A DNA stretch of 64,000 nt, taken from contig NC_134028.1 of NCBI RefSeq assembly GCF_964204645.1, positions 7,874,001 to 7,938,000 on the forward strand, read 5' to 3'. A program made the position numbers and the translations under genes. Below the pieces are notes generated by a model. It was not told the origin of the DNA and ran no database searches. It worked only from the letters and a program-made list of their open reading frames with translations. The stretch is from Tubulanus polymorphus. Its lineage: Eukaryota > Animalia > Nemertea. Below, in pieces: positions 1,271 to 59,100 of this stretch (positions within the stretch are counted from its first letter, which is position 1; each line of letters begins with the position of its first letter).

Positions 1271-14029
<12,759 letters not shown>

Positions 14030-20110: not shown

Positions 20111-21293
20111 TTATTTGACTGAATTCCTACAGCGGATCACGCAGAAATATTCACGAATTTCTCGTCCCAGTCAAAAAAAAATATATGTAGACATTTACCA
20201 CGTAGTTCCATGTTGAAAACTCAGTGAAAATGTCAAATAGAAAAAATTATCTCTGCTCCGGCACGATTGGTAAAAAATGTTGTAAATAGCGAATGGAAGA
20301 TTGCAAATGCGAGTGAAACTGTTACAAGCATTATTGTACGTTTTGATTTTGTAGTTTTCGGATCAAAAGAAACCTCTGAACAACAGTTGTTCAGAGGTAC
20401 CGGCGTACTTCTGTTACTGAAGTACGCCGGTACGGATAACAGAATTTGATGTTAGAATCAGGTATAGAACGACAACGTGGATGACAAATGCTACAAAATA
20501 TGTTATTTGGTCAAATAATTCGTAGTAACATCCAAAAAACTGGTCAATGAAATGTATCGACAAACCAGATGTGAAATATATAAACATTGCATTCACTGCA
20601 CAAATAAAACGAATCTAGCGAATTTCGGTGTACATATCAAACGAGATGTGAACGAGGAGATCACAACTGCTGCACGTTCTAGAGATATTGCTACTATCAA
20701 CCACGAACTATTACATCCTGCAACCGCAAATACAAATTCATATATTTGACAAATACTGATCACTGAATTCATGATAAATATATTGGAGCATCTTTAACGT
20801 GGAAGAGAACAAACTGTATAACAGGCATCAGTTTAAAACTGGTGCAGAACATGGAATCACTGAGCGACAAAACGATGGGATAGTTAGCGTAAGACAACCT
20901 GCGGAATCTGCGACTTATCATTATCAAGAAAGTAGCTGAATATCCTAAGGCCCCAAACATGAACACTGTAAAGATAATGACCAGTAACACAGTACGGTAG
21001 ATTCCAGATCTTCATGAATTCTACTCAGATGGAGATCGGTCGCACCATGGACTCTAAAACGAAAATCGTTAGAGTCCATGGTCGCACCTACAGCAGTTAC
21101 ATCGTTCTACTGTCTGTGATGAAGTTCATCACATTCCAGAACCGATCTGCATCTGAGTAGAGTTCATGATTCATGATGATCGAAGGAGTGTGTCCTGACT
21201 GGTACGACGAGAATGTGCTGTCTGGACTGTCTGAGAGTGTACTGACCGTTTCAGAATATACTGGAACTGACCGTGTCTTGGAAAATTGATTTA
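20111..21293 (-). pseudogene. Rhodopsin-class (peptide-receptor-like) GPCR pseudogene, TM region intronless
   Basis: Fragments occur in order across changing frames: TM1-2 (FTVFMFGALGYSATFLIMISRRFRRLSYANYPIVLSLSDS), TM3 (CQIYEFVFAVAGCNSSWLIVAISLERAAVV..LICTPKFAR), TM5, TM6 (TIMLVTVSLAF / CNLPFAI), TM7 (WNYVVNVYIYF..EIREYFC). There are at least five frameshifts or stops, and the conserved TM1 GN is changed to GY. Confidence 0.82.
21039..21087. mobile_element. Mini-palindrome with 7-bp TSD (P-superfamily-like footprint)
   Basis: gtcgcac-[catggactctaa aacgaaaatcg ttagagtccatg]-gtcgcac; 35-bp insert. Confidence 0.75.
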
Positions 21294-32190: not shown

Positions 32191-35100
32191 TCACAGTCGG
32201 GTATCGAACACTGCCGGATGAGCGTCAACCTGTTTGTCGCCGATGATTTTCGGCTCTAAAGGATCGTCTTTCGACGCGTACGCTAAATTTGAAAACGACG
32301 ACGGCACAAACCGGCCGCTACCGCGATGTTCCTGCACGTGTATGTCGGAATCTTTCAGCGACGACCTGGCGTCGTCCGAGTCGGAGAACGAATCATCGCT
32401 CAGTAAACCGTCGCCTTGACTGCGTGAGAAGTTGAAAAATACCTGAAAATGAAATAATGATTGACGATAACCACGAATTCATGATCAGCAATTTCAAATG
32501 GTAGAGAAATGATTGTTTGAGTAAAGAAATCTTTTGAGTTGAAGATCATTTACAAAATTTTAGAGGAGATCAGTATTTTAAAGGTTGATACACATTTTGA
32601 CCACCTATACACGCTGAATCAAATCATTTCACAAGTGACTTCAGATAAACACATCTTTGGTTATTTTCACATTTTCTACTATAAAAAATTTACCTGATCC
32701 AAGGTTGTTTGACTGACGGAGTAGTCTTCAATTCCTTGTTTATCTTTTTCGCGTTCGATGTGTCCAAATATACTCGGCAACATTGATGTTGAATGCGGGA
32801 TGCTGAACTCCAAAAAGTTCAAATGTTGATCCTAAAATTGAGCAAACATTGCTAGATCAATCATTTTACAAATCGTTTCTCTAGCTATAAGAGGCGAAAT
32901 ATTTCAGCATGTTCATATATATAAAATCCACTAGGTTTAAATGTAAAGTAAATATAATGTTTTAATTTTACAATGTGGAAGAATATTTCAAGAATCTAAT
33001 CACAAACCTTCAAGATCGTTCCAGGGAATCTACCCTTGATAAAGGCTGCAACCAAAGCTGGAGAAGCGTCGGTGCTCAATCTCAACTGTAGAGTGTACCC
33101 TTCACCAAACCTACAATATCAAATGTACATATGAGAGAACCTTCGAGATAACAGAGCTGGCGTAACGCTTCTGTACCCCTCTTTGTTCGATGGTTGATAT
33201 TTAAAAAGGTCCAAGCCAAGATTGTCAATTCAACAAATTAAGATTTTAAGAATTATGTGGGCCTTGTAACTAGTAGCTCAAAAAGCTTTCCTCTGTTAAC
33301 CAAACCAGAGCTGAAATACAGAGGTATTCTATTTTAGAACATACATACTTGTTTCGAAGATGTTGGGGACTCCCGATACACTGGAAGTGACCGTTTACCA
33401 TTATCGCTAATTTTGAACACATAGCTTCACATTCATCCATCCTGCAATCAAAAATTGATTAATTGGCGAGAAGATTTCTTGAAATTAAGAGAATCAAGTA
33501 GAATCTGTAGAATATGTTTACCTATGTGATGATAAAATCACCGTGAGTCTGCTATTAACAATGTAATTTCGTACCAACTGTCGCATTTTGACATCCATAC
33601 CAGCAGTTGGTTCATCCTACATTAATATTTAAATATACAACCTTCAATCTAACAATCGCAGTAAGCCTATAAGTATCTATCATTTGAGATGAATGAAATT
33701 TACTCCGTTTATGAGGAATGTCTGAATGAGATCAAAATCGAGCAAATTTTATGGTATATCTTAGTGCAGCAACTACCCGGTAAGAACGGTTTTAAGATTG
33801 ACATCCACTTCGGGACCTAAGGTCTTTGTATCAGCATCGGTCTTCATCGAGGAACTGACCAATGACCATTAATGGATCATTTCACTTACGAGCATGATGA
33901 GAGTTGGTTTGCCGAGAAGAGCGACTGCAATTGACAAACGTCGTTTAGTTCCACCGCTGTACTGGCTTATAACCATATCTAAATAATCCTGCAGTTCTAA
34001 CACTTTCACAATATCATCAACGCTCTACAGAATAAAAAGATAGTGAGATTTAAGACAGTAAATATTTTGGTTAATCGAGTCCTTCCTAATCAGTGTGACA
34101 GATTCCAAATCTACCAACGCCTTCAATTTTCGACGAAAGATTGGTCAAACGTCTTAACTACTGATTACTGATTCCAAATAATACCTGCTTTAACTCCTTT
34201 GATTTGATACCCTTCAATGTTCCGTAGAAGTTTAGGATTTCAAGGCCAGTCATTTGTAGATCCAAGGCATCGAATTGAGGACAGTAACCAACGTTTTGTG
34301 CCATTGCACCCTTCTTGTACGTGACATCGTGCCCGGTGAAGAATATCTGACCAGCAGATGGCATTATCGCTCCAGTTATCATGCTGAATGTCGATGTTTT
34401 GCCTGCACCATTTACACCCAACAGTCCAAAACACTTAAAAACAAATTAATAAACATTACATTAATTTGAAAAGGTTCATTCACGAATCTTGTTAGTTATA
34501 GAGATATCTTCATTGAATTTTTCAAGCTTCTTCAAATTCCAACTCTACACCCATTACCGGTGCTAATATTTTGACCACCCATATATTTGGTTGATATCCC
34601 AAAATTTTTCCTTGGAAGTACAAGGAATTACACCGCCACTAGTAACCCAGTGAACAGCCATCAATGAAACACTGTTAATCTAGTTAATATTTCTGTTTAC
34701 ACAGCAAGGGATGCTATTGATGAACCAGTCGTGAGCACTGGTATCATCTATTGTGACCAAACAGCACAAGTTCACAAGGATTTGAATCCACCACCTATTG
34801 ACCAAAAACCTTCACAACCAATGCCATGAAATGGGAAGTAGTACCTCTTTCTCTGGAATTCCAACTGTAAGCTGATCGACAGCCAGTACCCGCTGGCGAC
34901 CGGAACGGTAAATCTTAGACAATTCATGAATCGAAATGACGTCGTTGTTGCTTTCTTTGCCGACAACGCGCTGTCTCTCCAAGCTGACGTCGTCGTCCTC
35001 CAAATCCGAGTTGGGTAATTTCTTCGGCATCGCGTGACAACACAAATAGTCACACTCGCATAACAGATTTATAACGAAGAAAACAAATCCCTCAACTGCC

Positions 35101-38100
35101 AGGGCGACGCAATGCCAGCCCATAACCTCCGCGGAGAATGGGCTGTTGTAGGTGTCTTGTCCAAATCGTTCGAATAGTGATGATATAACTTGGTTCCTTC
35201 CCAATTGAATTAAGGCCTCACATAGTGTATACGGTGGGAATGCATAGACTATATAGCCAACCACACCATACACTGCCTTTATAACCTGAAGATAAACAAC
35301 GAACATGAAAAAGTGAAAAATGAAATGTATTTCTATCGTCGAAGGTGTTTCTCAGAGGGAATGGCTATGTTATGAATCATTACCTCGCTGTTGGTGGAAA
35401 ACACTTCTAGGATGAAAACAGTAAACAGTAAAAGTACTCCGCCCATTAAATAAAACATGAACGTTGTCAGGTACGCGGTGGTGCCATCTTTATAACAGCG
35501 AGACAGCAAGTAAGTCAGCGGTAGAATTGCCCAGCTTAAGACATGAAAAAAAAAGACTTCATGAACTATCTGAGCAGGAATCATCAAAAAGATATTCCAA
35601 AATGCCATCTTTGAAATTAAAAACAATTTGTCATTTGTTTCGGTAAGAAAAACTCCAACCTTACCCGAATAGCATCAATATGGCTGCTGTTCCACCTAGG
35701 TTCTGTTTGGCTGCGAAGATATCGAGATTGAAAGCGCGCATGATAGCAATACTTAACGCAACCGGTATCGCAAATATTATCTGAAATGGAGAAATCCTTA
35801 AAGTCAATACATGTACTTCAAAGGTCAAGATGACGATTTATCAGAAGACAGAATAACAAACAAAAGAAAGATTTGGTACTACATGTATTGCATTTCCTGC
35901 CTGCAATATTTTTTCAGCTTCCCAAAAACATAATAATTTCGATATAAAATATCATGACATTGGCGGATATATCAAAAGCAGTCAGTACAATTACGTGACA
36001 AATCCTCAGCTCAAGCCCTGCTCAACACCCACCGTCAGCAAATTCCCTGTTGCACAAAATACTTACCAGATCCCAAAAGAATGTAGAGATCCAGTAAAGC
36101 ATAGGCGTCACACCGTAGAGCGTTTGTAGGTGTTTTTCACTAGTGATTCGTTCTTTAACGATGAAAACAGCCAGACTTGCCGGTATAAAACAGAACGCCA
36201 CGAGAATCATAACCGTAACACCGACCGATGCCGCTCGATTCTTCCTGTAAATTGTTCAGGACACACACATGAAAGTTAGGTACAAGTAGCGCTATGTAGT
36301 AACTGCGTGATATTGAGAATGTCCACGAGAGGTTCAGAAAGGACAAAGAAGGAAAGTGTAGAAACTATAAGAAATACAAGATCATTTATTTCATTGCAAC
36401 TGTAGTATTGACCCATAAGATAAACCAAGGACGACTATATATTCCGAAGAAGAGTCTGTTATCTGATTTGTTTCATTTACCAAATTCTGACTGCCTGAAT
36501 AGTCGCGACTTGTGATAAAGTTAAGATGAAATAAATTATAACAATGGATCGTGATCTAACTTGAATAAAGCAAACCCATAGTTGGTACTAGAGTTAGACA
36601 CTCTTCGTTTCACTTACAAGTTTTCTTGGCTCAGCTGTTCCTCGTTGAAGTAAAGTGGGTCATTCACTGTCAATATACCTAAGATAACCCATCATATCAA
36701 ATTCTCAGTCTATGTACCGGTATTCATAAGATTATGCAAGAAATAACATTTTTACAAGCTATGCGTCATCAATTTCTAGAATGTGTTGACTTTGAACCAT
36801 TTCTTTTTTTATTTCTGAAACAACTTACCATAGTCGTTGGGATTTTGAGTAACATTTAAGTTGGCACGAAGCATCGCGTTAGTGAAACCGTTGTAGAATC
36901 CGGGTAGAGCGTGAATTCCCCGATTATAGAACCATATAGTCGCCGTTTGGTCGTTTACAGCGGTGCTCTTAGGATTTCCAAATTCCCAGCCACCATATCT
37001 ATTCATTAAATGATGTCAATATCTTATATGCAGTAAGCTTACAATTTTGAGACAATTTATAGAAAATGTTCATCGACATTTACAGAGCTTAGTAGAATAT
37101 TCAAATGTTTACAAAAAAAACTTATAAATGGGGAGTATGAATTAAGAATTGAACTAACCTGTTGTAGATGAACTTCTGCCATGTCGTCAGAATCCAGTCA
37201 GTTATATTGCGTCCAGTCAAATCATAAACAGTCGTACTCGTTTTTGTTTTTACCCGAGGCACAGGCAAGCCCGATGCGCCGGCGGGACATTTCAGGCGAT
37301 CACTAGTACAATGACAGCTCGGTTTCTTGTTGTATTTGATGGCCATTACTTGATCGACAGCCGGCGTGTCGAATGTAGCGTTCGTATTCGACAGACATTG
37401 GTATTCTTGATACATCCATTCTTTCGTTCTGTTGAAGTTGTTCATGCAGGATACACTCGGTCCCGGATCACTGACCAATGCGTTGATCAGCTTACTATTC
37501 ATACTGACTGATGGGTTAGAATTCCTATAAGAAAAATTAATCAACCAATCCATCCATATAGAAAATTCATGGTATCTATAGCATAATATCTATAGCATAA
37601 TAATTAGATAGTACTAGAAGTAGAGACATTTTAGGCCGCCCATGACAATTCAACTTTCGAACGGGTGTCTAGTTCTTACATCGGAACGATTCAATATGAA
37701 ACAAAGTAGCTAAAAGCTTTGAGATGAATCAAACGACATACTTGACAAAAGCTGGTAGATTCGGTCCGTAGAGTTCAGGCAACATGCGTCTAGCGGGCAG
37801 CTTGCTTAAGTTGATATTGTACGTCGCAGTCCAAATGGCGAATGTCACGCAGATGAGTGGCATCAGAATATGCGATAGATAACCCCACATATATCGACGA
37901 TGGTGATGGAACCTTTTTCCCAGTAATGCTCCGAACTGTCGCATTTTCAACAGGCAACCGGTATCGTGTTCATTGGTCACTTTGTTCTGGATGTTTACTG
38001 TAGTTTCGATGTTCTTAGCGGTGGCTTCCTTTTCATCGACTAAAATACATCAAATTCCGGAATCTCATTAAACTCGTATTTCTTTTGGTACTATTTTTGG

Positions 38101-41100
38101 TAGAAGTAACAATTAAAAGCAACAAATCCAGAGATTAAAGAACTAGTATACTCAATTTCAGGATACAAAAATAAAGCGTTCTGAACACATTACTCTCTTT
38201 ATGATTCTGACAAGTACCGTTTAATGACAAACTCTACAAGCATTATGTACCGTACCTTTGGATGCATCCGGACTAATCTTATCAACAGTGAAGTGTCCAT
38301 GTAATTGAGTAAGATTATCTGGATGTACTGGTTTACCCATATCAGCCATGGTGCACACATTCATAAATACCTACGAAAAATAAAATCATATCATCTTATC
38401 GAGGTTTTTTACCAGGCGTAGCCTGTAATTTCATTGAGGTTTTTAATTCGTGTACAAAGACAATCATACCTCTTCCAATAATGTGTCAGACACCCCATAG
38501 CCTGCAATACTGAGGTTCGTTACGTTGTCATTCATTTCCATGAACAGATGTTGGAATTTGGCTTTTTCTTTGTTTGGCAAAATGATTCGAATTTCTCGTC
38601 CGACTTCCTCGAGCAAATAAGCACCTTCCACATGACCGCCGACGAAATTCATGATGGCCTCTGCTGAGCATTGAACAGAATCTTTTCCATTTTGTATCTG
38701 GAATTCAGAGGAAGCCAAATTCACTGAATCTTCGAGTTCAATATTTAACTTTTCTAAACTTCTTAAATCTTCCCTAGTATTTCATTGGTGATTTTTCCAA
38801 TTTTCCCAAATGGAAATCAACGGATACCTTCTTACTAAAGGGGCGTCAAAATTTTTAAGCAAAATTGCTGAAGAGTTGCCCTCGACATACGCTACGTGAA
38901 ATGTAAAATGAATTTGCCAAATATTTCTCGGATTAGAGGAAAATTTTCAAAATTCCCAAACATTTCCATACTGGGATTATAATTTCAAAATTCCCAAATT
39001 TTTCCCAATTTCCTGGTACTGTGCTCAATAATGTACTCCTTACTAACCTTGTCCATCTTGGATATGTTGAGGTGATAGCCCTGTCCATATCTCTTCTTCA
39101 GAAACATCGAAGAGCCGCTGCACAGCAATCGACCTCGGTGAATAATTGCAATTCTGTCGCCTAAAACATCGGCTTCTTCGAGATGATGAGTGGAGAGTAA
39201 CACCGTGCAGTCTATCAACAGAAGGAATATTAGAGGGCTCACAAAAATGAACTACATGTACACTACATATACTAGGCCGGTAACTGGGAGGGGTGCGTTG
39301 GGTTCCCTACAGAGTTCCACTAGTTTTTGTCAAAAGAAAAATTATCAGATCACATCAATGTTCCATTAACATTGATGTATCATTCATGAACATTTGCTGC
39401 TAAAAACACATCATATTTTCAAAATGTTCTTGGTGGGGGCCCCAAAACCTCTCAGGGGGCTTGCTGTTACCACTGCCAAATACCGGTATATATATCAAAT
39501 AGAGGCAGCGTACAGGCCTGTATACAGTAGTAAAATATAGGGGAAATTTATCGGTCATAACTGATAATTGTAAGCAGCTTTTCCTTAATTCACAGTTTTG
39601 AACAATTATGTAACTCAGATTTGTTTTGTTACTTACTTTTCTTGTATTTAGAAATGATGTCCCAAATAGATCGTCGAGCAGCAGGATCGACACCAGCGGT
39701 CGGTTCGTCGAGAATAACAACCTTCGAACCGCCGATGAACGCGATCGCGATTGACAATCGACGCTTCATTCCACCTGAGATGTTCCGCACTTTCTCATCT
39801 TGGAGATTGTACAAACCGGTGTTTATCAGCATACTGCAAAATAAAACCAGAATAATCAGTATCCTTTTACAATCATCATACCGGTACCCAGTAGTACCTG
39901 ATACATTATTAAAAAACATCTTTGCTATTCTTTTGGATTCTTCTATCGCAAGATTTTCTGATAAATCCATCTATCAGCCTACATTATAATGCTTACCTGA
40001 ATATAGTATTATCATTAGCTAACCAGAAATCTGACTGCTTTACTCCTTAGAGTAATCATTTGTCAAATCATGACTCCCAAGTTTAAACATTGCAGGGCTA
40101 AACAGCAGGGACATGGCCTGCTATGGCAGGGGCGAGCGCCATTTCCATGCCATCAGGTGCACACAATAGTTCATGGATTGGAAAGGTGCCTAAAAGATCC
40201 TGGATTGAGGATTACGTTAGTTAATCATATCAGATATCATTTCACCATAATTACCTTTCGACGTCTTCCTTCTGCTGCCACCTTGGCATGTTCCCTTTGA
40301 TTTTCGCGAACATTTCAAGGTGCTCCTTAACAGACATACTACAGTAAAGAGAAGTATATAAGCCACGATCACATGAGCATTTTAGCCAAATTTGACCTGG
40401 AACAACTGTTCACACGGGTGCCAAATGGGCCCGAGCCTGTTTGGCCCGGGCCAAATTTCGACCAAAAACGTCGGACCAGGCCCAAGTCAAATTTTAGCAC
40501 CAGACAAATGATTGCGTTTGAATTGCAACTGGCACCGGAAATGATCCACTTCGCTCTGTTTAGTATCGAGTGAATGGTTTGCGTGTGAACGCGCTCTCTA
40601 ATTAGGCACGGACCAAATTTGGCCCGAGCCTGATCCGTGCCGTTGCCCATGTGATCGTGGCTATAGATAAGTTGAACCGTTTGTTCCAAACAGGGAACCT
40701 CCAACGCTTCTGTGGCAAGCGAGGATCTGCCATGTTCGCCAGTAGTTAATCAGTCTTCCGCATTCAGTTCCTTCTATATTCTTCCTAATGAACTATTCTC
40801 TTAAATACATTATTGATATTAATACCCATATCCGAGAAGAAAAATGAATTTAAAGTATATTTAGTTGATCATCTGATAACGTACTCGGGCGCCTAAAATT
40901 AAGTTGGAAGTTCATCGATAATGAACTCACTAATTTTGACAACGAAAGACTTGACAACTCGGTGTTGCAGCTCCCCATTACTGTGACCCGATGGAAAGTT
41001 TTCGGTTAACGGTTTTTTAACTTACTCTTTGTAGAGTACGTTTTGTTGCGGACAGAATCCGAGCGATTTTCTGATCGAATCGTAGCGCGTTGTGACATCT

Positions 41101-44100
41101 TTTCCATCGATGAACGCGGTACCCGAACTGGGCGGGGTAATTCCAGTGAGAATATTACTGCAATAAATAGATCACATCTACATTACACTAACCACAGATC
41201 GATAAACCTTCTCAAAATACAGCTCTTAATTCGGGCGAGGTCAATCCGGAATTTGATGTAATCTGGATATTATTTACGGTCAATCTATACATAAGTGTAC
41301 GTAGTATGTAAAATCATGACATTTAATTGAGATTTCTTAACCATAGGCTGAAAAAGTGGTGCCTTGTTTCTCCTCGAGTTGAACCGGCTGGTGCCTGTCT
41401 AACCTGTACATTACTTTAAAAAAAAATCTCTATCAGCCTAATCATAACATGTCCCGCAGCTATAGAAATCAACTGATTACAAATCTTATTGCAGTTTACA
41501 AAGTGACCCAGCCGATTAGCAGAAACGAGGTATCATTTTTTAAGCTTATCTAGATCAAGCATATCTAACATATCTCCGTCCAAAGGTTCTCATAATACAT
41601 ACATAGTCGATGTTTTTCCTGCTCCGTTGTGACCGAGGAATGCGGTGACTTGACCTTCGAACAAATTCAAATTCAACCCGTCGACGGCTACTTTCTTCTT
41701 GCGGCAACATTTTCCGTACCTTTTCGTTAGGTTCTGTATCGAAATACCGATCGGGAATTCACGAGGTTCCCTCTCGTGAACTTCGTTCTCATCTAGGACA
41801 AAGAAAGTAAATCAAATCCTTAGAAACTTTTTCTATATATCTTAGATAAGTTTTTATCGATTTTAAAAATTTAATTCAGATTAAGTCAATTTTTGTCATA
41901 CCCAACTTAATTCAGATATTTGATCCAGTCTGCGAGGAGTTTAAATAAAAAATCATTATCTGCTCACATCAATATATAGGTGGACCACAAATTATGTCCC
42001 GATTAGACGAGATCTTAAAGTGATCTGAATTAAGTTGGTTTCAATGTATCTTCAAGAAATTAAGAACCAGAGTATTCAGTGAAATGATTTCTAATTGGCT
42101 AAAATACCAGTCTGGTCTCGGCCAATTCGAACTAACCAAACGTTGGAATTGTATAAACTGGTTCTCAATTCCACTTAATGGTTTAACGCATAATGAGACG
42201 AGTATTCCGATCATAATTTCTTTCATTAAATTACAATTTGTATTTGATTGCGTATCAGCATTTGATATTCACAAGCAGTTAGTCATTCAATAACATTTCA
42301 CAAACAAAGCATAACTCTGGAAGCAACTCGACAAATAAATATAGAGAAAAAAGGTTTTAAAAATATAGGAAAATGATTGGCAAATTTTATGCACCAACGA
42401 AGCTATCCTTACAGAATTCAAAGATGAAAAAACCACATACAGTATTTACAATTGCAGGAAAAATTTCGTTTCTTGAAAAAGAGCAGGCTACACATGGGGA
42501 CCACATTATGAACATTCACTTTTCGAATATGTAAGTGGAGCCTGCCTTAAGTATACCCGGTAAGCTCGCAGACACGTGAAAACATTGAGATACAGAACGT
42601 CGAATAGGAGTAAAGTAAATTCGTATGGGACAGCCACTAAATACGGTTCACAGTAGATTTTTACCCTTCGATTTGAGATTTTTATCGTTTGAATCAATGT
42701 CGAGATATATTCCGCATTGAGCTAAAAATCAGATCACAAATAATCATCAACAAAAGAGCCGAAAAATCAACAGAAGAATATAGTACGTCATTTATGGTTT
42801 CATATATAGGTAGTTTGATTTCATGTTACTTACCAAAAGGTAAAAGTGGATTTAATTCTGTACAAGGTACACAACAATATATTTGAGTCATCTTTTATGA
42901 AAAAACTTACAACAGTGTATACCCGGAGTAGTTAGGGGCCATCCATTTTAGTATGTACGCAAAAGTCTCCTCCCCCCAAAGTATATATGCAAGAACGAAT
43001 ATGTTTGTGTAAAAATAAAACGTTTCTGTCGTTTAGCATAACAGGTTTTAGTAGATGGCGAAATATTTAGTACCGGGTTCTAAAATGGTGAAGATACAAT
43101 CATTGTCGATGTAGCAGTCATGGTTTATCAAAGAACACGTCAAGAGAATATAAAATCCTTTAATAATCCTGACACTTCATTTTTTATTTGAACCCAGAAT
43201 GAATGCAAAATATTGATTTCAGCAAAATCGTCAGACATACCAGTACATGCAATAGAAATACACAATTAAAGGTCAATAGCGTGCCAAATAATTATTAGGT
43301 CTGTACCGTACAGAGCCAGGTACCCCTCCGTCCCCTGTAAACATTTGTATGCATTTTCACAGACCCCCTCCGCCTATCGTGCTTACGTACTAAATGGATG
43401 ATCCCTTAGGCATCGATATTTTATGTAAAGCAACAAGCTGTATCCATTTCAGAGCCATATAGGGAAGTGTGCACGCATGTATGTACATGTACGAACAACG
43501 TGTACATGTTTCAAGCATTGTTATGACCAACTGGCAATATTCATCTACGACAACTACTGAAACTATATATCATTCCATACAGTTTCCACAGCGGCCAAAT
43601 CAATTTACCTAAAATATCTGCAGTCGATGGTTCAGTGGATCGAATACCCTTTGTCAAGCAGGCGCCTGAAAATTAAACGATCTATCAAATTTTAAAAGAA
43701 CTTTATCCAACTCTAGAACATGATATCGTCATACCTGGCAAAGCTCAGGTCGGCTCTACATAGATTGGGCTGGCAAACTGTTATGAAGTTTTTACCGAGA
43801 CATTTGAACCGTTCGATCAGGGATTCAAAAAACGTTTTAAGGGAAAACTAAGTGGGATCATGCTGTGTCTCACGTCAAAAACTGCTTCCAGAATGTATGT
43901 GTATGTATAAGCATTTGTGCATGATTATCAAAATAAATGGTGAACGTTTGAAACAGCTATTACAATCATGCTTAGAACACCGTTCCCGTATTGAGATTTC
44001 TTTTCACTCTTGTCAGGCGTTAGTGAAAACGTGCCATAATTCACGATGAACTTCATGACGTGCGCGTTTTTTGTAACAGTGTTAGATAACGCTAAATCGA

Positions 44101-47100
44101 AATACGATGACATTTCCGTCGGATCTTACCTTTCTCGTCGCTTTCGTAAATCGGGTTCACGTATTGTCCGATTCCGTACTTGTTCTCCATTTTCGTCGGC
44201 TTTTTCTGAGAACAGAAACAGTTCCAGTAGCTCGGAGTCAACGGGAAATACCAAGGTCGCGGAGTTCCATATTTACCTGAAAAATCACAATCTCGAAGAT
44301 GGATGAACATGATCTTATTATCACTTCCTCAATACCTGATTTACTATTTCAATTGATCACTAAATTTTAACATAATTTTTTTCAATTATTTGTTTCTTAC
44401 ATCTATTCTAGTGTATGTAATGGAAATTAGTACTATAACTAGTTTTCATATGACTTTAGCTCATAAATACACAGCAGAGAAATAATATAACGTCAACTGT
44501 ACGTTCTAAATTATATATCCTAACAACTATAGCTATGTGGTTTGTACGGTCTTGGAGTAATCATTTGAAATGATTACTCCAAGGTACGGTGATTGATTCG
44601 GGCTGTACTTAAATAGTTTTCATATACTGCCAGAGGCGCATTAAAAAAGATTTATAAGAAACACTTTGGTTTTCTCGCGCCAGAATTAACAATTCGAAAA
44701 AAAATAACCAAACCCGAAGTTAACCAAAACCAATCATAGAGAAGACCTATACCATGAGTGCACATATACATACTTAATGGTGTTTATACATACGGTACAC
44801 ATTGTGGTGTTATAGAACAAGGACATTTCTTTTTTCACTATGTTTCTCGTTTGTCCTGTACACTTTATTGAATTGTCAATCCAATAATGTCTTTGTTTTC
44901 AAATTAAGGCCCGATAAAGTAATTTTGAATTTGATGTTAAATTAGGTTTGTGAGTTGTGAGGATATTCAGTATCTATAGTAATATTCACCGCTGGCGGAG
45001 AGGGTCATATTAGGTCTCGCGGAATCAAACTTACCCGGGTAAATGTTTCTAACGTACCAACCGATCACGAAATATATCAGACCGTCGACGAACATCATAA
45101 TGCAACCCCACTCAAACGTCATCAACGACAGCACGTACGTATCTTTTGTGTTCGACCATTGAATTCCGACGCCTCGGTCCTCGGCTCGGGTCACGTGAAC
45201 GGTACTGAAGCTGAACGCGGACGTTGAGAACAAACTCTATCGAACAGAGAGGGAGTGATATAGGATGATATTACGTCAGAAATTCTGCGATAAACGCCGG
45301 GAATTCTGGGCCTGGGGGGGGGTCGTTTTTGCCGCGCAACACACAACACACAACAAACTTTGAAACTTACGGAATGTCAGTGGCGTTTACACGAGGATTT
45401 CAGTATGTTACCAAGCCTTCATGACAGTTGAATTATTGGAGGCCTATTCAGCTTATTAAGCGCAGAAATTGATTCCGCACCGAAAACCCGATCTCAGCAC
45501 AGTACTGAGCTGGACGTGTATTTCCTGAAGCAAGCCACCACGTATTGTAATACACTACACTCAACCAGGATCCAGTTGCTCAAAAGTTGGTTGCGGTTAA
45601 CCCCCAGTTGACATAGTAAGGATTATATTTGGTATGTTTGGATGGTATCTATCCACCGGTTATCTTCAACCAACTTTTGAGCAACTGGCCGCAGAGTGTG
45701 ATTTATTCATGCACGTGGCAGTTTTTGACTTCGTAAGCCCTGAATCTTGTGTGAACGCCGCTAATGTGCTGTGCACCGAATACGACTATATAACAATTCG
45801 AAGCATTAATGGAAAGTAATTACTGTTAAAACTTCAATGCTAACACTTTAAACAGGTTTAAAGAGTTATATTCACCGAAGTTAAAAGGTATATATGATAA
45901 TGGTATTTCATTTTATGGCGATTATTGGCTTATTTTAGGTGTCAGTGTGCATGTGAAGTTTTTGACACACATTTATATACGATTAAGGCCAGCCAATGAG
46001 TCTTTTTTGGCTCAATTTCACTTGTCTTGACATTCATTACCGGCTACCAATGTACTCCTACTTCTGGTTCTGTCCCCGGTGCTGGGGCTACAAATATATT
46101 CTTAGCTGATTTTTCTTATCTACAGTAAGATATTTGCACTGTGGCACACGGGAATTACAGAGTTCCGATATAAACCAACTCAGCTTAATTCTCAATGCTC
46201 ATTGGTCAATTACCAGCAAAGGCTGACTTTGTAACGCTCCAGTGCCGACCCGCGAGTACGGTATATTTGTAGCAGCAATTGGGGGCGGCGCCGTATTATC
46301 AAGCCCACAGTGAATGTGTTCATAAGGATTGGATGAACAATTCTTGAATATGAATATAAAAATTTGAAATTGAAGATGAATTTGGTGAAATTGACGAAAT
46401 TGAGCCTTGATCTCCATTGGATACAGATAAAATCTCATTGAATAGCGGTTTAGTGACGTGGTACATGAAACTAGTGTGGCATAGGAGGATGCAGCCAAAA
46501 TATCGGATACCTGGGTTGAGACATCTGATGTACCAACCAATGACGAAATATACGGCACTATCAATGGCCATCATGTAACAAGCGTGGTGAAATGAACTGG
46601 ATTTCCACCAGAATACCTCGTTCACATTTGACCATTGAATGCCAACGCCTTCTTCCTCGAAATATGCTACATAGCCGGCCGCCGATGAAAATGCACTGCC
46701 ATGCAGAATAAACTGTAAAATTCATACCCAAAAATCATCATTACGAGAACCTATAACTGGGACCATCCAAACATCAAAAGTAAACAAATGATCAATTGCC
46801 TTTGATCTAAATTCTGTACGAACAGAGGATTATTTCCTTCAGATGATGCAAAAATGCCGAAATAACAGCAACATGAATACATGAATATATAGTTGCAGTT
46901 ACATTGTGGTTGAATAGCCACGCTCAGAGTTCGGGAATGGATAGTACATGTAAATAAAACTGTACCTCTAGTTACATTACACATGCAGGTTGTATGATTA
47001 GTCATAAGCTAAAAGCAGCACCCGATTGAAATTTAACTCTTGAGAGTCAAATACTGCTTGGAGAACACCACCAAAACCTGCCCCCCTCCCCCTCAAATAT

Positions 47101-50100
47101 AATTCTAATCATAACAAACTGATCAGCATATCAAATGCTCACCGAGTAAAATGAGGCCAGATTCTAAAATATCGTGCAGTGTTAAAGCTATCAATGACCA
47201 AATGACGATCATGAAGTGTAAGCGTATGGAATTTTCAAATGAATTAATGAGAAGCCCGTTTCAAGCAAGCATTAGGTGGAAGAATAATGACCCAGGTTCA
47301 GTTTCACAAGAAAAATATAAGCTTAAAATGACGAAGATGTAATGAATTATAGTAGACTGTGAAATAACGAATAGCAAATAAACCAAAAGGTTGTATCTGA
47401 AATTTAACCTGGATATGGCTAAGGGGATAATCTTGCGTATGTTTTTAATATCATACAGTATATGATCGGAGTCCAGGGATACTTGAAAAGTAGTACAATG
47501 CTTGACGATCTGACCATTTACAATAATGCTCAATCTCAAACTGTGACATAATTCCAGGGTTTGGTAAGAGAAACTTTAAATTCTACTCGTGCATTTCCAA
47601 AATTGTTCTTAACAGTAATTACCCGAAATTAAAATCACTTTTCACTTAATTCGGAAAATATTCCAAATTTGTTTTGGTTGAAGAGTCAGCTTACCGCTAA
47701 TATTTGTTGCCAGAATGTCATCTTGACTTCCAAAGCCTCGGTGATGATATAGGCTTGATAGGACATCAGGTAGAATAGTATACCGACCAACGCAGCCAGG
47801 TTAGATCGATTGAAGAATGCACTGACCATATAACTAGAAGAATTCACATTTACTTTTCATGAAGGTGATTAGGGAAAAGAAGGTGGAGTCAACCCTTGAT
47901 CCTTATCGACTAATCACTTCTTATCAAGTTAACTAGCAAGTTAAGTCAATACCGGTATAGCCCATTTTGCCAGAAAGTTGAAAACATTTTGCATTATAAC
48001 CATCAAAATGGAGATTGGATATACAGTAAAATTTAAAGGAAAGAAACAATGTTCAACATTCTTATTCTATTCCGAATAATCTTTCTTAATATGGTGACTT
48101 AGAATTCCCTGAAGTCCAACCTGGAGGGTAATAAACTGACAAGAATGTCTGGCAGCAGATGACCTGATGAACAAAAAGTAAAATACAATGATAATCACTG
48201 AATGATATATTCACAAGATGTCATTTCAGTTCTCTTAATTCCCTAAAGAAAGCTAGTTTACACGCACAATACAAGTGTACATACCACATCATCAGGGTAG
48301 AGAATGAGAAATCCATAAAAAGGAGAATCAGAATCAGTGGATTACTGTACGGCAACAGCGAGGAAACTTTCATTACAAGAACGATCACTAACAGCAAAGC
48401 CATCATCAACAGGAAATTGGTGATAAACCAACTCACGAAATTGACGACGCTGCTCATTCCCATGACTTTCATCACCTAAAATAATCGGGAAGTTTCATTT
48501 TTAACGCGTAAACATCTTTTTCGCTAAATCGATAAATGTTCTCCGGATAGAAAGTACAGCGTTTATATCGACTGAAATTCACCGACCTCCTCGATTCCCG
48601 TTTCTCGGTCGTAGACTAACGATTTTATCGCGATTCCGATGAACGTAATCCACGTGATAATCATCATCAGTGGAAGTAAGAATTTATAGACGAACGATAA
48701 GAAACTGAAATCAAATTTGTAGAACATGTCGTCAGCTACAATTCTGCAATTGATTGAGGTTAGGAAATATGCACGGGTACCAATTTGGGTACAAGGAAGG
48801 TTACAGGACAGCCATCTTGTTTCTGATTGACCTATTTTATTTATGATTGGCCTAAGGATGATACATATACTACGAATATTTGAATCGGAATCTTCACGTC
48901 TTTTCCCGTCTGTTCTTTAAGGATGATACATATACTACATATGAAACTGAGAAAATTTATCATGGCATCTTCAAAATTTTCAATATGTGTAAAGAGCTGA
49001 TTTTGGCAAACGATAAATAATTTAGGTCAGAATAAATAATTTAGGTCTGTTGCGTTTGAATCGGAATCTTCACGTCTTTTCCCGTCTGTTCTTTAAGGAT
49101 GATACATATACTACATATGAAACTGAGAAAATTTATCATGGCATCTTCAAAATTTTCAATATGTGTAAAGAGCTGATTTTGGCAAACGATAAATAATTTA
49201 GGTCAGATAAGGTCAGTTTTTGGGCTGCAGATGTGCCTATACACGCATGAACCAAATATCAAGACAATCCATTGAAGCATCTGAAAAACTTCCCAAAATA
49301 ACTGTCTTCTGTCTATGGATGGATAGATGACTGACAAAAAGTGAACAAAACGAGTCCCAAGGAGGCTAATTAGATATTTTCTGTTAATGATTTAGACGAA
49401 TCCGAATGTTTAAGATGCAACCGAGCATCTATCATCAAGTGGATTTCTTAAACCGTAAGCCGGAAATATTGGCGTATTGGGCAAAGCTGTAAAAATCCAT
49501 GTATTCTAGGCTAAAAACTGCCCTCGGCTAATTGGCCAGAAAAAAATTTCAAATTTGACTCAGATATCGAGTCATAATTCAGCCCGGATTGAACATGAAC
49601 TAATTCGAACTGATCAACTTAGCACAGCACGGAACTTACCTATCTTTCATGTAACAAGGATACGGGAACTGTTGCGTTTGAATCGGAATCTTCACGTCTT
49701 TTCCCGTCTGTTCTTTAATAATCGCTCGGTCGATCATGTCTTGCAGCGGTAAAAACCCTCGCAGATATCGCAGATCCTCGGCGAAGTTATCACCAGGTCC
49801 CGGACGCGTAAATCTACGATAGAATGAACACGAGTTCCAATCGAATCTCGAAACAATGCGAGCGAATTTAATCATGATATTTACTGTAATTGGAATATCA
49901 ACTTACGCCAACCACGATGTATCCGTATTCATCGTATTATCGACATCGACACGGATTTTATACCGAACAAATTTTGGCAACGTTCCAGCAGTAATCGTAT
50001 TGTTTGCGGCTCGTTTCTTTCGATTTTGTTGTTGTCCGAATTCAAATACGATACCTAAAACCAAACAGTCGTAAACGTAACGTCGTGAAATGATGTCCGA

Positions 50101-53100
50101 GAAAAACTGAACACACTATATGAAAATTTCCTGTCCACATATACCTCCAAGAAGTTTTCTTTCTTTGGCCCACTTAGCAGTGACAGTCTGCAATTCCTTC
50201 TCTGATGAAACCCCAACATATCTGTACCAATGAATGATACAATACACATGAAACAACTTTTATCATGTACTATGATGGCAGGCTATACGTATAGTCACTC
50301 AGAAATTACATGTTCTGTAAGTTACGCAAGATTTTTTTCTGGAAAACTACGGATAAGTTTCTGATCCAAGAGGAGGGGTGGGGGTGGCAAGAGTTGCAAA
50401 AGATTTTATTCCGGAATATTTCAGAGAGTTCTGATCTAAGAGAGGGGTGAGGGTGGCAGAATGCCGGAAGACTTTTTTACCGAAATTTCAAAGAGTTCTG
50501 AACTAAGGGTTAGTGGGACCTCGAAATGTAAACACCGTATTACGTATTGTCTCACCTAACCATATCCCCTACCTAAGCACTTCATAACTAGTTATGAAAT
50601 CTAACAACCAATATCTCAAGATTTTGAAAATGAAATACTGTTTCCAAGAGAACTGAATCGTCAGCAATAATGACCAGAGATCCCCTGGATATTTCCAAAA
50701 GGGAATCCTCCAGACTTATGTTATCCTCTGCATATCACTAGGAATCTTCCGGAATATTTCAGGAAGAAATCCGGAAATTTCAGACCTTCTGTACAGTGAA
50801 ATTTCTGGACATGACTGCACACAGTAGACCTTCTTATGTATATAGAGTAATATTGAGCAGTCATGTTAACTAGCATCTTCATGACTTAAGTCTAACCTAT
50901 TAACATCCATGCATTCTGTGAAATTAAGTGTTAATCCAGCCAGTTGTTTTATTCTAGCGGTATCATTTCTAGAAACAGTTGTCATGTACGACAGACTGTC
51001 AATCAACTCGGTCCCATCTACACCAGTTATAGACATCATAGCTGCGCCTACCATTGGGTTCGCCATCGATTTCTACAATAAATCGATTTCAAATCTTTAT
51101 GTATTTCTGACCATCATCAAAATAGATACGAGAGAATCCGATGATTACCTTGATTATATCCAGTTTTGGTCCCATGTCTGATAATTTTTCCAAATATTGA
51201 ACATTCTTATTCACTGATTTCAGCATGTCTATCAAACTGGCGAGCTCCTCGTACGTAGAATTTGCCTACAAAAATATCAAAATTAAGTTGGAACTTAAAA
51301 TCCACCTGCGTGATCAACAGCAGACACAATTAGCTAAGTTAAACTAAAGTTAAGTGAGTAATAGTAACATCCCACTAATGTCCAAGAAAAAATTTCTTGG
51401 GCGAAACGCACATGTTCTGATGAAGTATGTGAACAAATACTTACCGAAGACATAATTCTTCTTGTAAGTGGCGTATTCGGCGTGAATGCAACTTTTCCCA
51501 TCAGGAACGGCTTGAAGAATGCCCAGATAACCGGTCCAGCTGGTAAATCTCTTATGGTCTTGAATATATCAATACAGAATTCACCTTGAACGAAATCAAC
51601 AATCAATGAATAACAAACACATTATCGTTAAGCAAGCTTGTTGGGACTTAAAATCCACTTGATCTATGTGTTGTTATTGACCATAATGTAGATATATAGG
51701 AAGGGCGGTTGTGCAACAAATCAAATTTCTTCGTAGTTATGCTTAGGAAATTGATGTATATGGATGAACTTACTCTTCTTAGCATCTTTGAGAATTTTCA
51801 CTTCATTCAAATACGAATCACTCAAATTATCAGCTTTTTTCTGTTCTGCCGACTGCCCAATTTTACCGGCTACATTCATTTCATCGTTGACCGAAAACAT
51901 ATTTTCCATTCCGCACATCATTCTGCTTATTGATTTCATCGCGCCGCTCGCTGCAATCATTGACAAAATAAATGAACGCCCTAACTTGCGATATAGAGGA
52001 TTTTACGACGCTTATCATAAAAGAGTATTTCAAAGTGCCAATATCCATGATGAATATGATCAGCAACTCTTGTGCATTGGGGTTTTTACTCTTAACCTAC
52101 TTAAGTGATCTAAAATACTCTGCATTCAGCTGTCATCAGGCCACACACTCATTTGACAGTGGGTGGAGCGAAGCAATGAAGATATAAGTAAATGCTTTGC
52201 CGAGAGACATTTCATTAGAAGTGGAACATTGCCTTTAAATATTGAAATAGGCTGTCATCAGAACATTAAACTTGAAAACCGTATTTGTACCTTTTGTGAT
52301 CTCAATGTTATTAAAGACGAATTTCATTTTGTTCAGATTTGCTACAACTATACTGAAATTCGATCTATCTTACATACAACAGCAAAAAATAAATTCAAAG
52401 ACTTTGAATTAAAATCACCCGAATCCCAATTTATATTGATCATGAAAAACCTTCAAATTGAATTTTCACACTATATCACATAGATAAATAATAAAATAAA
52501 ATACATACAGCACTGGGTTCAAATCACAACCTGGCATCACACCCACACCACTACTCTGCATCATCGTTTTTCAAAAAGAAAGTTACCTGATGGTGGATCT
52601 GAGCCGATCGTACTTGTGTCAAGTGAAGGAATATCATTAGTCATATTGGCAACAGTGTACATCACTTCAGCGAGGTGCTCTTTCATCGGTTTCATTGCTT
52701 GCATCATTTCTTTCATGGATTCTGCAGAAACGTTTGATTTTCTCAACAAACCATTTATGCCCATATTCATAGCCTAAAGATACAAACACAGGTTGCATGA
52801 ATTGGAGAAAATGCTTAAACTCAGGCAGTCTGTATTCAATAGATATCAAGAACATGTTGCTAAAAGGCCGTTGACCTGAGCCCGAGGTTACGGATTCAAG
52901 ACTGGTCATAAAAACAATCTCACAACTTAATACTGCTTTGGATTTAAGACTATTTTCCGACTAAACACAAACGTAGACTTGGGTCTTGCCTGAATTTCAT
53001 TGAAACACTTTACTGGTTGCTGATTGAGAAACCTCGCTCAATCAACCATATTCTTTTTGGGATACACTGTTCAGCTTTAGCGTGATGGCTATTCTTACCG

Positions 53101-56100
53101 TTTGAATAAGACGACCGATGTCGAGATTTCTCAGAACTGTTTCCGTGATGTTGACGATCAGTTTTCGATCGATGGAGCACAAATGACGGCTGATATCCTC
53201 AATCGATAGTGTCGGTGTATTCGATACAGTTAAAATCTTTCCGAGGTTCGTAGCGTTACAAATGAGCTCATTGATGTTGGCTTTGTTGTTAGCTACGAGC
53301 ACCTAAAAATAAAACAACCACGTTATCAATATTCTCTAACAATACTGTAATTTCATGGTGAGAATCTATTTTCCCCCGAGTGTTTGACGCACAAACCTGT
53401 AGATACGAGAACGGAGCCATCATCAGAGCTTCACTGGCATTCTTAGTAAGTCCGATGCTAACCAAATAATCGGCGAAATCCTCAGGCGATTTGACGACAT
53501 CCTTCAGCGCAACTGTAAAAGTAGGAATATGGTATTTTCACCAAAATAACTTAAATTGGACCACGTTCATCTGTCATATATCATATTCCTTTTTTGGTTT
53601 TATGTTATAACACAAAGCTGCCAACGTGCATATATCAGGACGACTACCAGTATGGTAGCTTTCAGAGGGCAAACAATTCTAATCAGCGGTACAAGACAAA
53701 TACTGTGGTTGAAAGATGGGTTTGTTCGGGGACTATCGCAGTTAGTAGCTCTGTATGTAATCATATACACATCGTATGAGTATGGCTGAATGAATGTATA
53801 AGTTAGTTAGTAGAGTTTGACGTCCCAACCTCAAGTAACAGTGGGTCTTAGGAGACGACCAGGGCCTTTATAAAGGTTGCTATTGCCCTCAACCTGACTA
53901 CGTTAGCAGAGCTTATTCCATGTTATTGACAGCCAGCGCAGAGGTGGTTTCAAACCAGGCACCACCTGCTTCCCAGTCCTCCACTCAACCAACTGAGCTA
54001 ACTGCACAAGACTGAGTATATGAATGAATGAATGAATGAATGAATGAATGTACAATGTATGAATGAATGAATGTCTAAAACAATAAATACAAACCATTCA
54101 GAGGCATAAAAGTCTTGTATACGTGCAACGATTTAACACCATTGGCGAGTTTTGCCAAAATATTCATCACTCGCTTCGTCGACGGATCTTTTCCGATTTC
54201 CTCAAAAGTTTGCAACAAGGATACAATGCTGTAAGAATGATTGAATAATCAAAGGGTTTACTTCAGATTCTTGAAATTAAATCCTCAAATGGATTCTAGC
54301 TGGAGACAATATAGAGTAGCTGGCTTGGGAGATGTTTGCCGCCTACAGAAGCTCAGCTGTACTTCTACCCAGAGTCAAATTTGGCCCGTGCCTAATTAGA
54401 GAGCGTGTTCACATGCAAACCATTCACTTGATACTAAACAATGCTCAAACAAAGCAAGTCACTTCCGGAACCAGTCGCAATTCACACGTTATCATCTGAC
54501 CCATGCTAAAATTTGGCCGGGCCTGGCTTGACATTGTGTAAACAGTTGTTCAGGCCAAAAATGATTGTGTGATCATGGTTATAGACTAGGATAAAGTCAG
54601 CCAGGAGCACCTGTTCTGATGACTTCGCATACACTATAATAATCATCACTGTTAATACCTGTCAAATATTTTATCCGGTTGGTTATCCATTATGAATCGC
54701 TGAATCCTCGGCAAAATTTCCAGCGCTTTCTCCGTTGAAAAGTCGTTCAATATCGCGAACAAGTCGATCAAAGATTGGCTTCGTTTGATGATGTCACCGG
54801 CGTATTTGACGATGTCCGATATCAAGGCGACATCGGTAATCGCTAATCCCGACGATTCGAACGCCTAAAGAACGACATGAAATGAAAAATATTTATATTT
54901 TATATCTTCCCGATGATATTCCAATAGGCCACCGAAAGAATACTTACTCGGACAATAACGTATCCGATGTTGACAGCGTCGCGGAATTTGCGAATATTTG
55001 ATGTGACGTTCTCCGTACAGATCGAGTCGGTTATTTTCTTGTAGTCGACGTTTAGCAGCGGCGAGAAACTGATCGCTTTCGCCAAATTTTCCGGTTTGCA
55101 AAGCGTATCTTTCAGTGCTTCATCTGATTTGTTACCCAGGTGGCGCTTCAAGTAGAGAAAGCAATTTTGACAATCCATGTGACAATGGGTCTTGGGCTCC
55201 GAAATTACCATGCATTAGTTCCCATTGCATTTTGGATATGTGGTATCTAGGACCATTAGCTAAATTTTGTCAAGACTTATTGAACTTCGACCCCGTTCCT
55301 GAGTTATGAGGTTATCTACAAGGTCATGGAGCTCTAAGAGTTTTTAGGGCCTAGTTCCGTAACTAGGTGGCGCACTGGGCCCATTCTTTGCACTGCACAA
55401 CCAGACCACCAGACTAACGTTGCACCCAGGTTTCATCAAATTGACCCACTATTAATGAACCTAAGTAGCAGAAAGAAAGACCCACAGACTGACAGTACGA
55501 GAATAAGGGTCTCACAGAAGCCCACAAACCAAGCAATTATAAGAGACAGCAGCATATGCCTTATATCATTTACTAGTGGGTGAGGGATTAGTAATTTAGG
55601 ACAAGAAGGCAGAGGAACCATGGTGAAAATTTCCTTATCTAAATATATATCTGAAACTTACCAAATCAACAGTCACAGTTGCTCCGAGCAGAGAAAATGC
55701 AACCTCGGGTGCCAATTTCAAAGCATCCACTAGGATTTCGGAAGCTTTCGCCTCTGACGTGAATAGTTTTGCCATCTTTAAAGTCACTGATTTTTGGCTC
55801 AACAACGGACGGAGAATCATTTCAATATCCATTATATTAAGAAACTCTTTCAGCGCAGGATCGGAGAGCAGTTTTGCGACAGTAGCGCCCATTTCAAAAG
55901 CTCTGCCGATACAAAAAGAGACAGAAAATTGAAAGCACACGATTTTCAAAATCCCAACAGCAAATGATAATGACGTGGGTTGAAATAGCTACTTACGCAT
56001 CGATAGTTTTCAGGATTGAAGGTTGGGCTTGCCCGGCATGACACTGATGCACTTTCTCGAATAAATCCGATTTTGAAAAGCGTTCCACTGCGGCCACATA

Positions 56101-59100
56101 TTCCGATATCACGTTATATGTTCTTTGACATGAGAAATGTGCCGGCTTTGAGAACAAGTTTTCAAACTGAAACAAACAATAAAGTAAGAATTTTTAAACG
56201 CTTTCTAATGAAACTAACCGACTTCAACAAAATTACGGTATTGAAATCAAAATAATCATACAGATAAAGGTTTGAGTCTTAAGAATATATCTAACTGGAG
56301 GTCAATTGTCTCTGAAAGATACCTTGCGAGATATAATAAACTTTATGCAAAATTTTCACATACCCTTTTAACAGTCTCTTGTATTTTGAGTTTGTTGACA
56401 AGTTCCAATAAGCCACTAATGTTCAGGTTTTTCAGCGAGCATATTACATCAGCTATATTAGGCTCTGTGAAAAAAAGCAGTCATAATCGATTCAAACTCA
56501 CTATCACGTATGTTAATTGCCACGAATAGCAGTTTTCCATCTATTCAACAACTACCTATTATGTTCATTTTTTCAGCAAATATCTCATAAATGGTCAACG
56601 TTCCATCCGTTAAATTAGCTATCATTTCCACCATTTGCGGCGACAACATCTTAACGGTGGCCTGGCACGCGGCGTTAATGCTGAAAAATTTGTGAATTTT
56701 AATACCAATTTTCCCCAATATCAAACACTTAGGCAGGTTTTGATTGGTTTCTACCAATTCCGGAATTCCTTCTGGCATGTTCGTTTCAACCAGAATATGC
56801 TCTCCTTATTCAGGAATAGCATAGTTTGCAAACATGATAAAATGCTGGAAGAAAGTTTGTAATCCGGAATTACAATTCCTTAACCAAAATATGTTCTATC
56901 GAAACCTGCCTTACATTTTTCTTTCATCCTTCTTACAATAGTCATTACCTTTCATTATTCATAGTTTTCGTGGCATTCAGAGCGATTTCGATAGGTTTAA
57001 ACCAATTCGCTAAATCTACAGTATCAATACCAGTAGAATTCATCACCTGCGCGAATGATGTCATCCATTTCTGAAATTCCGTTACGTAATAAACGAATGG
57101 GTTTCGAGTTAAATCCGCTGGTTTCGTAATGGCAGCTGTGACCTATGCAGAAGAATGTTAAAATATTGTTACAGTAATGGACTAGAGATAGCAGTCGTCC
57201 CATGGAGAGAAATACTCGTAAATAATATGATTTCATATGGAAATTGAGATTATATGAAATGTTTCCATAAAGTGCACCCGTGTCAAATTTTCCGCGAACT
57301 TAGATGATAAGATTAATATGCACGTAAGCAATAATTCTTTTATCATAAGATACAAGTGAAATTAATCTAATCTATCGTAATAATAAGAAACACAAGGGTA
57401 TAATGAAAGCCATAGTGTTATAAAACACATGTAGAATTAGCTTAAGTTTCATTCGAAGGAATAGCATGAACCATCTTGTAAGGCTATATTTTTGCAATTA
57501 CGTACTGCATTAACGAAGTCGGTCATCCTGATAAGTTTGACAATTTTGCCGAATCTCAACGAGTCGGATTTCAACGCATTGCACATGGCTGTCTGTATGG
57601 CATCAGCACTGATGACAGAATTGTCCCCGAACAAGAATGTTTCTTGGAAAAACACAGCGTTACACATCATATTAACAGCGGCCTTCTCATTCGCCATCAA
57701 AAACTGGGAAAACTAAAATATCGAAAAATGAATGTAGCTAGTTCGAAAAATAAGCGCATCAATGCCATAAATGCAAACCGAACCAGAACTTCGGCTGTGG
57801 TTGATTTCACAAAAACCTTTTTTTTAAAAAAGAAAACCTTTTTAGCTGAAATAATTGTAATTCAATAAATCAACGCATCAGATGAATCTTACCCGTTCTG
57901 GATTCACTACCGCTGTCAACAGAGAAGCCGTATCTGATGGCGATAAGTAAGGCTTCAAGATATTAGCCAATGCAGTACTGTTAGGTAAAATTCTTGATAA
58001 GGAGATCTTCGTATGCGGACCTGTTTTAGAAGACATCTTTTAATTATCAAAACTGCGCGAAAAAACAAAACCCTTTCACAAAATGTTTTAGCTTTGGACG
58101 TATATCACGAATATCTTACCTAGTGATTTCAGTATCTTGTTAAATTGTTCATATACATTTGCCTGTATAGCAATATTTTTCTTCATTTCATTCCAGAAAT
58201 TTTCTCTTCGCAAAAATGGATCCACGTAGTTCAAATACAGAACAGCTCTGCAAAATATCATTCTTCGCTGTAAATATCATCCTTTTTCATATTTACATGA
58301 ATGACATTATGGTGAATGATAGCTTCATGATATCAAAATCCCCGTAGAATTTCTGAACGTAAAAGACCTAATACCGTGAATAAAGAGGATACCATCAATT
58401 TGGCAACGCAAATGTACTTACAGATCCCAGAATTTCTTCTGGATTAGTTCTGAGATATGAGACATAACAGGCAGGTATTTCTCCAAATCGAGCTGCCACT
58501 TTACGCCCGACGGTAGCTTGTTCAATGCGGTGAACACATCGACGATGCTCAGCAAATTCGACTTCATTTTCGCCCAATCATTCGGAGGAAGTAAACGTTT
58601 CACGATACCGTCAATGGATGAACCATTTTGAATCAAAAATTTAAAACTTAACTAGAAGAACATGAACAACAAACAATAACTTTAATAACGTCGAAAGACA
58701 AATATGTCGAACAGTTTTCAGATTTCAGTCAATATCCGTACCAATTGAACGAGGAATATGTATTCTCCCGTGTTGAATCCGGCAGATTTAAGCGCTGAAC
58801 TCCAGTTTTCACCGGGAATACCACAGATGGCAGCACTCATCGCAGTTACATTCATGTATAACGTAGCACTTAGATATGACTCGAGCGTATCCGGTTTACA
58901 TATGATATCCTGCATTGATTTCTCTTTCGCTATAACTGTGGCCTGATATGAAAAATACGATTTACGTACAACTAAGACATATATCACAAGACTACCCAGT
59001 ACTTCATTTGATTTTGATTAAATACATATACATGTAGATGAAACCATCCACATATCTTCGATTAACACTTACAGAAACTCTGTAGAAGGCTTTGTTATAA

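Follow-up and report, generated by a model that had tools for sequence, protein, structure and literature searches.

A tandem-duplicated exon pair for the predicted EH2-loop-TM6 segment in an ABCA12/13-like transporter gene of Tubulanus polymorphus

Tandem duplicated exons that substitute for one another are well known, are enriched in membrane transporters and arise convergently (PMC9741552), and the ABC transporter cases listed are Drosophila MRP with eight interchangeable exons, C. elegans mrp-1 and human ABCC9 (PMC9741552, PMC8373072). The exon pair described here resembles these cases in that homologous tandem exons lie in the gene of an ABC transporter and only one of them enters the mRNA; it differs in that the described cases belong to ABCC and both of their forms have been demonstrated, whereas the present pair belongs to an ABCA gene, is predicted to encode an EH2-loop-TM6 segment, and has been demonstrated in the form with one copy (B) alone. 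No ABCA gene appears in the human and fly tandem-exon lists searched (PMC9741552, PMC8373072), no duplicate of the corresponding segment of ABCA4, ABCA1 or ABCA7 appears in the curated human list (PMC8373072), and the one predicted ABCA candidate found in the supplements of Hatje 2017 (PMC5740500) is an N-terminal exon of ABCA1, different from this exon. The EH2-loop-TM6 pair is most likely of a kind already known from ABCC, and a search of the open full-text literature found no published report of such a duplicated ABCA exon.

The window (the whole stretch of 64,000 nucleotides of T. polymorphus DNA that was analyzed) contains, on the - strand at 32190..63998, the last two thirds of the host gene, an ABCA12/13-like full transporter (residues ~1871-5377 of the public model), the 5' part of which lies beyond the window. 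A model of 34 exons from 51584 to 32190 that includes B has an open frame of 1,880 residues with both ATPase domains intact. In a comparison over 1,605 residues it shows 100% identity to P0171, the public model of the gene (NCBI and UniRef). The public models P0171 and P0191, of 5,377 and 5,385 amino acids, form a cluster of two members and differ solely by a 24-nt microexon of phase 1 (42857-42834, - strand) that has AG and GT ends and contributes eight residues to the linker between TM6 and NBD1. The protein has the two TMD-NBD halves and the large extracellular domain of a full ABCA transporter, with Walker A, signature, Walker B and H-loop intact in both halves. In a FastTree phylogeny of 26 proteins with an ABCA2-like protein as the root, it is sister to the giant ABCA proteins of molluscs, in a clade that also includes vertebrate ABCA12 and ABCA13, and away from the ABCA1/ABCA2-like proteins, a placement that by itself would make the animal probably a lophotrochozoan; the bivalve giants are ~40% identical to it over 1,600 residues. 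An earlier, sequence-only reading of this DNA had equated the duplicated exon with a segment of human ABCA1; its ABCA homology holds, and the gene as a whole belongs with the ABCA12/13-like proteins rather than with ABCA1. The first extracellular domain is huge (52000-64000 and beyond), which places the start of TM2 near residue 3,775 of 5,377. The first 120 residues of the public model include no obvious N-terminal TM1 segment, and therefore the model may be incomplete at its 5' end.

Other features of the window were recorded in passing. A 153-nt perfect direct repeat with a spacing of 176 (48853-49207), in the intron that follows the exon at 49813-49640, contains a 40-50-nt piece of that exon twice, and resembles the outcome of a recent local duplication or of the capture of an exon fragment. 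A gene at ~5467-14026 on the + strand has a last exon of 1,040 codons, and by its motifs presumably encodes a KAT6/MYST-like histone acetyltransferase. Pieces of open reading frames at ~18450-19620 (-), 20240-21100 (-) and 22670-26570 (+) are apparently nested or closely packed; by their motifs they presumably represent a saposin-repeat protein, a fragmented GPCR-like sequence and a tetraspanin.

The two exon copies, A (46511..46712, - strand) and B (45035..45236, - strand), are each 202 nt long and run from phase 0 to phase 1, between a constitutive upstream exon of 139 nt (47695..47833, - strand; end of TM4, TM5 and EH1) and a constitutive downstream exon of 147 nt (44130..44276, - strand; cytoplasmic segment after TM6). 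Both are preceded by AG and followed by GT, and each encodes 67 residues without a stop. They are identical at 28 of 67 residues (42%) and 104 of 202 nucleotides (51%), and their local protein alignment scores 155, compared to a maximum of 60 among 5,000 shuffles. Either copy alone matches human ABCA4 residues ~795-862 with an E value of ~4e-7, in agreement with the ABCA homology proposed from the sequence. The reading frame is open when the upstream exon, A and the downstream exon are joined, and likewise with B in place of A, but inclusion of both copies, or the direct joining of the flanking exons with neither, puts the sequence out of frame and leads to a premature stop. Thus the coordinates, lengths and phases of the sequence-only reading, its intact splice sites and its argument from the reading frame were all correct, and the locus has two attributes expected of mutually exclusive exons: adjacent homologous exons with matching length, phase and splice sites, of which one alone is in frame and both or neither are out of frame. 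No other whole duplicated exon was found in the window by tblastn of the gene model. Identity between A and B is distributed unevenly, with 8/9 residues in the GxQWxN motif, 13/25 in TM6, 6/17 in EH2 and 0/11 in the outer loop, where aromatic residues abound in A.

The segment encoded by the pair was located by modeling isoform B from TM2 to TM6 with AlphaFold (pLDDT 91); in this model, helices at residues 116-139, 146-152, 156-172 and 193-217 are named TM5, EH1, EH2 and TM6 by homology. The model superimposes on the fold of human ABCA4 with a TM-score of 0.92 and an rmsd of 1.6 A (E value 5e-11), and the same segment (ABCA4 795-862) has the same fold in TMD1 of human ABCA4, ABCA1 and ABCA7 (PDB 7m1q, 7lkp, 7tc0), where it is one residue longer than in A and B. 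Because the swapped exon corresponds to model residues 153-219, TM5 is predicted to be constitutive: the model places TM5 and EH1 in the upstream exon, and the EH1-EH2 turn, EH2, the exocytoplasmic loop and TM6 in either copy of the swapped exon. This agrees with the positions of ABCA4 L797 between TM5 and TM6 (PMC7796138) and of ABCA4 C764 in TM5 (PMC8501128), and it shortens the TM5-EH-TM6 segment that had been assigned to the exon, in which EH2, the loop and TM6 stand but TM5 and EH1 belong upstream. The contacts of N-Ret-PE in ABCA4 are made by TM1, TM2, TM8, TM11, the TM7-ECD2 loop and ECD1 (PMC8501128), and none of the listed residues of the ABCA4 substrate pocket falls within the swapped exon, so the earlier proposal that splicing switches a lipid-handling module is unsupported; the swapped segment is peripheral to the known substrate pocket. 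The function of the external helices of ABCA transporters has been stated as not known (PMC8501128). An earlier homology model of ABCA4 placed EH2 near R653 of the pocket (PMC7796138), and thus an indirect effect of the exon swap on the pocket is possible.

Comparison of A with B gave dN of 0.62 and dS of ~2.1 (NG86), the latter being saturated; this is the between-copy part of the dN/dS check that had been proposed, and it is indicative of old copies under constraint, with silent sites that appear to be near saturation. A profile built from 74 distinct full-length homologs, excluding the host gene's own model, gives 84.3 bits for A and 90.8 bits for B. The median for held-out homologous exons is 99 bits, with 7/68 scoring below A and 14/68 below B, although these sets were gathered with the A/B profile and hence are biased towards A and B. 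Of the twelve columns conserved at 80% or more, A keeps 11 and B all 12; residues never seen in homologs number nine in A and eight in B; and relative-rate counts with 146 outgroups are nearly symmetric (6.1 versus 7.4). A diverges more than B at the EH1-EH2 turn and in the first turn of TM6, and its terminal branch in the exon tree is 1.23 compared to 0.79 for B. That tree, of 32 rows, neither recovered nor rejected A and B as sisters (p-AU 0.25). Neutral drift was simulated in 20,000 runs per condition, assuming five indels per 100 substitutions and counting an exon as intact if nine conserved residues were retained along with its frame, length and splice dinucleotides. By this measure a dead copy passes as intact in 41% of runs at 0.02 substitutions per site, in 1.4% at 0.1 and in at most 0.015% at 0.25. 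Such fast decay, together with the saturated dS, implies that both copies must, as judged from their sequences, have been under constraint through most of their history; purifying selection on both is evident as past constraint, with which a recent silencing of A is compatible.

The duplication looks lineage-restricted, as judged from distant relatives, because their loci carry a single copy of the exon and no isoforms swapped for this segment were encountered. A first metagenome scan yielded no relative among 97 candidates, and a second yielded five loci with one copy each. Two of these five span both flanking exons, and in both of them (2/2) the intron positions around the exon are the same as here but the exon is single, unlike the duplicated pair of T. 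polymorphus. Among the ten species or cluster groups inspected there were no isoforms that differ in the EH2-loop-TM6 segment, and a two-exon alignment search of proteins of similar or greater length found no relative with both copies. In Bulinus and Sinanodonta (P0014, P0056, P0169 and P0024, P0164), several ABCA12-like genes lie on one contig; these are whole-gene duplicates with diverged versions of the EH2-loop-TM6 segment, as opposed to the exon duplication described here.

In the RNA sampled, B is expressed and A is skipped. Run X4 contains one spliced contig of 3,590 nt at a depth of 74.3, which joins 48285>47833, 47695>45236 and 45035>44276, all three junctions having GT-AG ends. Of the four junctions that had been suggested for counting, the two that include B were thus found, whereas the two that would include A (47695>46712 and 46511>44276) were not, nor was any other junction into or out of A, in this one spliced run of one sample, whose contigs drop rare variants. 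The sole piece of X4 on A, which leaves the 3' third of the exon uncovered, crosses the acceptor unspliced at a depth of 4.4, similar to that of intronic pieces (4.3-9). Run X5, presumed to be RNA, matched repeat fragments only. Both public protein models of the gene include B and neither includes A, which is therefore an exon absent from them; an isoform with A would be ~99% identical to these models, yet the two-member protein cluster holds B only. Polymorphism between the samples is too sparse to be informative, with one synonymous change in B and none seen in the covered parts of A.

The splice sites of the two copies are of unequal strength. The donor of A is weak, only 1/32 constitutive donors scoring lower, and that of B is strong, with 31/32 scoring lower, which suggests that B is probably the default; the acceptor of A is average (14/33 score lower) and that of B low-scoring (2/33). 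Steric exclusivity was rejected because the intron between A and B, at 1,274 nt, is too long to block joint inclusion. Exclusivity enforced by incompatible U2 and U12 sites was also rejected, all four splice sites reading as U2-type when compared with the U12 consensus; the donor of A starts with GTATCC and continues with GA. Thus the exclusivity that the sequence-only reading called obligatory holds at the protein level, by way of the reading frame, but not as a steric block. Mis-spliced products would be expected to be cleared by nonsense-mediated decay.

The introns around A contain a perfect 14-nt complement, extended to 18 bp with G-U pairs, between a 5' arm at 47609..47622 (- strand), ~70 nt after the upstream donor, and a 3' arm at 45816..45829 (- strand) in the intron between A and B. 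A complement of 14 nt has a chance of P ~0.01 (500 simulated intron pairs), and this one is the only match among 94 like-sized pairs in the window. The candidate stem (-22 kcal/mol, weaker than G-rich pairings elsewhere in the same introns) would loop out A, and from this analysis should be taken as a lead only. It resembles the docking-site/selector pairings described in Dscam, Mhc, 14-3-3zeta and MRP1 (PMC6071210) in that a complementary intronic pair flanks one alternative exon; it differs in being a single pairing, known here from sequence alone, without a competing selector, as no competing partner was found in these introns. Strong G-rich/C-rich pairings near B, at or beside which the second sample has indels, were set aside due to their low complexity. 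High-copy palindromic repeats (MITE-like) with very high contig depth occupy 45572-45688, 44551-44583 and 40385-40641 in the ABCA introns.

The most likely explanation of the locus is a mutually exclusive exon pair in which B is the default and A is a minor alternative, likely restricted to a tissue or stage. The EH2-loop-TM6 exon is present as two old tandem copies, B being spliced in by default, probably through its strong donor as compared to the weak donor of A, and the intronic stem, by looping out A, possibly adds to this preference. In the tissue or stage where A is used, the second protein would differ in these 67 residues only, and purifying selection would have kept A because it is translated there. 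Transcripts with both copies or neither should reach a premature stop and fall to nonsense-mediated decay. What the swap adjusts is most likely the outer surface of TMD1, and not the substrate pocket itself; presentation of a different EH2 and loop to the extracellular domain and the outer leaflet may affect folding, trafficking or lipid preference. A fuller version, in which the two isoforms are produced in different tissues or at different stages, the stem hides A by default, and the swap of EH2, loop and TM6 changes the lipid or the extracellular acceptor, is doubtful when taken as a whole.

Certain alternatives to the mutually exclusive pair bear on the existence of the duplication and on the fate of A. 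An assembly artifact, by which two haplotypes or paralogs were placed in tandem, has a negligible probability. The contigs of the unspliced run X1 over A and B overlap by 20 nt only, inside a repeat, and no contig bridges both copies, but these contigs span A and B with zero differences from the window and with depths of 33.6 and 37.3 over the two copies, compared to 30-36 over the flanks (X1 may itself be the source of the assembly). The second sample also contains pieces of A and of B, their nucleotide identity is far below that of alleles, and the introns on either side show little or no relatedness, with scores of 18 and 25 compared to a random median of 17 and a 95th percentile of 23. The tandem exon duplication is real, and the sequence-only reading rightly thought an artifact unlikely. 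Given two real copies, it is unlikely that A, long functional, is now a silent pseudo-exon without decay as yet, such that isoform B alone is made. Splicing and annotation that show B only, the weak donor of A, its longer branch and its odd residues at the EH1-EH2 turn would all fit with silence; however, the time during which a dead copy looks intact is short compared to the age of the pair, unusual residues are about equally frequent in B and A, and the RNA basis is one spliced run of one sample in which rare variants are dropped from contigs.

Other roles that would dispense with an in-frame junction from A to the downstream exon fare worse. Use of A as an alternative last exon, by read-through of its weak donor and intronic polyadenylation, is improbable; the product would be a truncated protein made of the extracellular domain, TMD1 and a 63-residue tail, without the ATPase domains. 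Beyond the donor of A (46510-46322, - strand) the frame indeed has no stop for 63 codons, compared to 1-36 codons at 33 other donors, and AATAAA occurs at 45707, but a single AATAAA is what chance would give in 1.3 kb of AT-rich DNA, the tail is in part of low complexity, A retains the exact donor position of the family, and spliced entry into A, which this use would share with the in-frame isoform, is likewise absent from run X4. It is more improbable still that A is a regulatory poison exon, the joint inclusion of which with B would trigger nonsense-mediated decay and lower the output of transporter: A and B together do yield a premature stop, and decay would conceal such transcripts, but a poison exon needs no conservation of amino acids and A keeps nearly all of the conserved positions.

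External helices lying between TM5 and TM6 are a feature of both ABCA and ABCG transporters, and mutations that cause Stargardt disease fall in those of ABCA4 (L797P, G818E, W821R, I824T; PMC7796138). The pair described here takes tandem exon substitution beyond ABCC, into a segment of an ABCA transporter. If A is silent, it is merely an old spare exon. If both versions are under selection, the contribution of EH2 and TM6 would be testable in an otherwise identical protein of 5,400 residues; and if the joint reading of tissue-specific isoforms, a stem that hides A and an altered lipid or acceptor were true, the gene would constitute a natural domain-swap experiment on the external helices of ABCA transporters.
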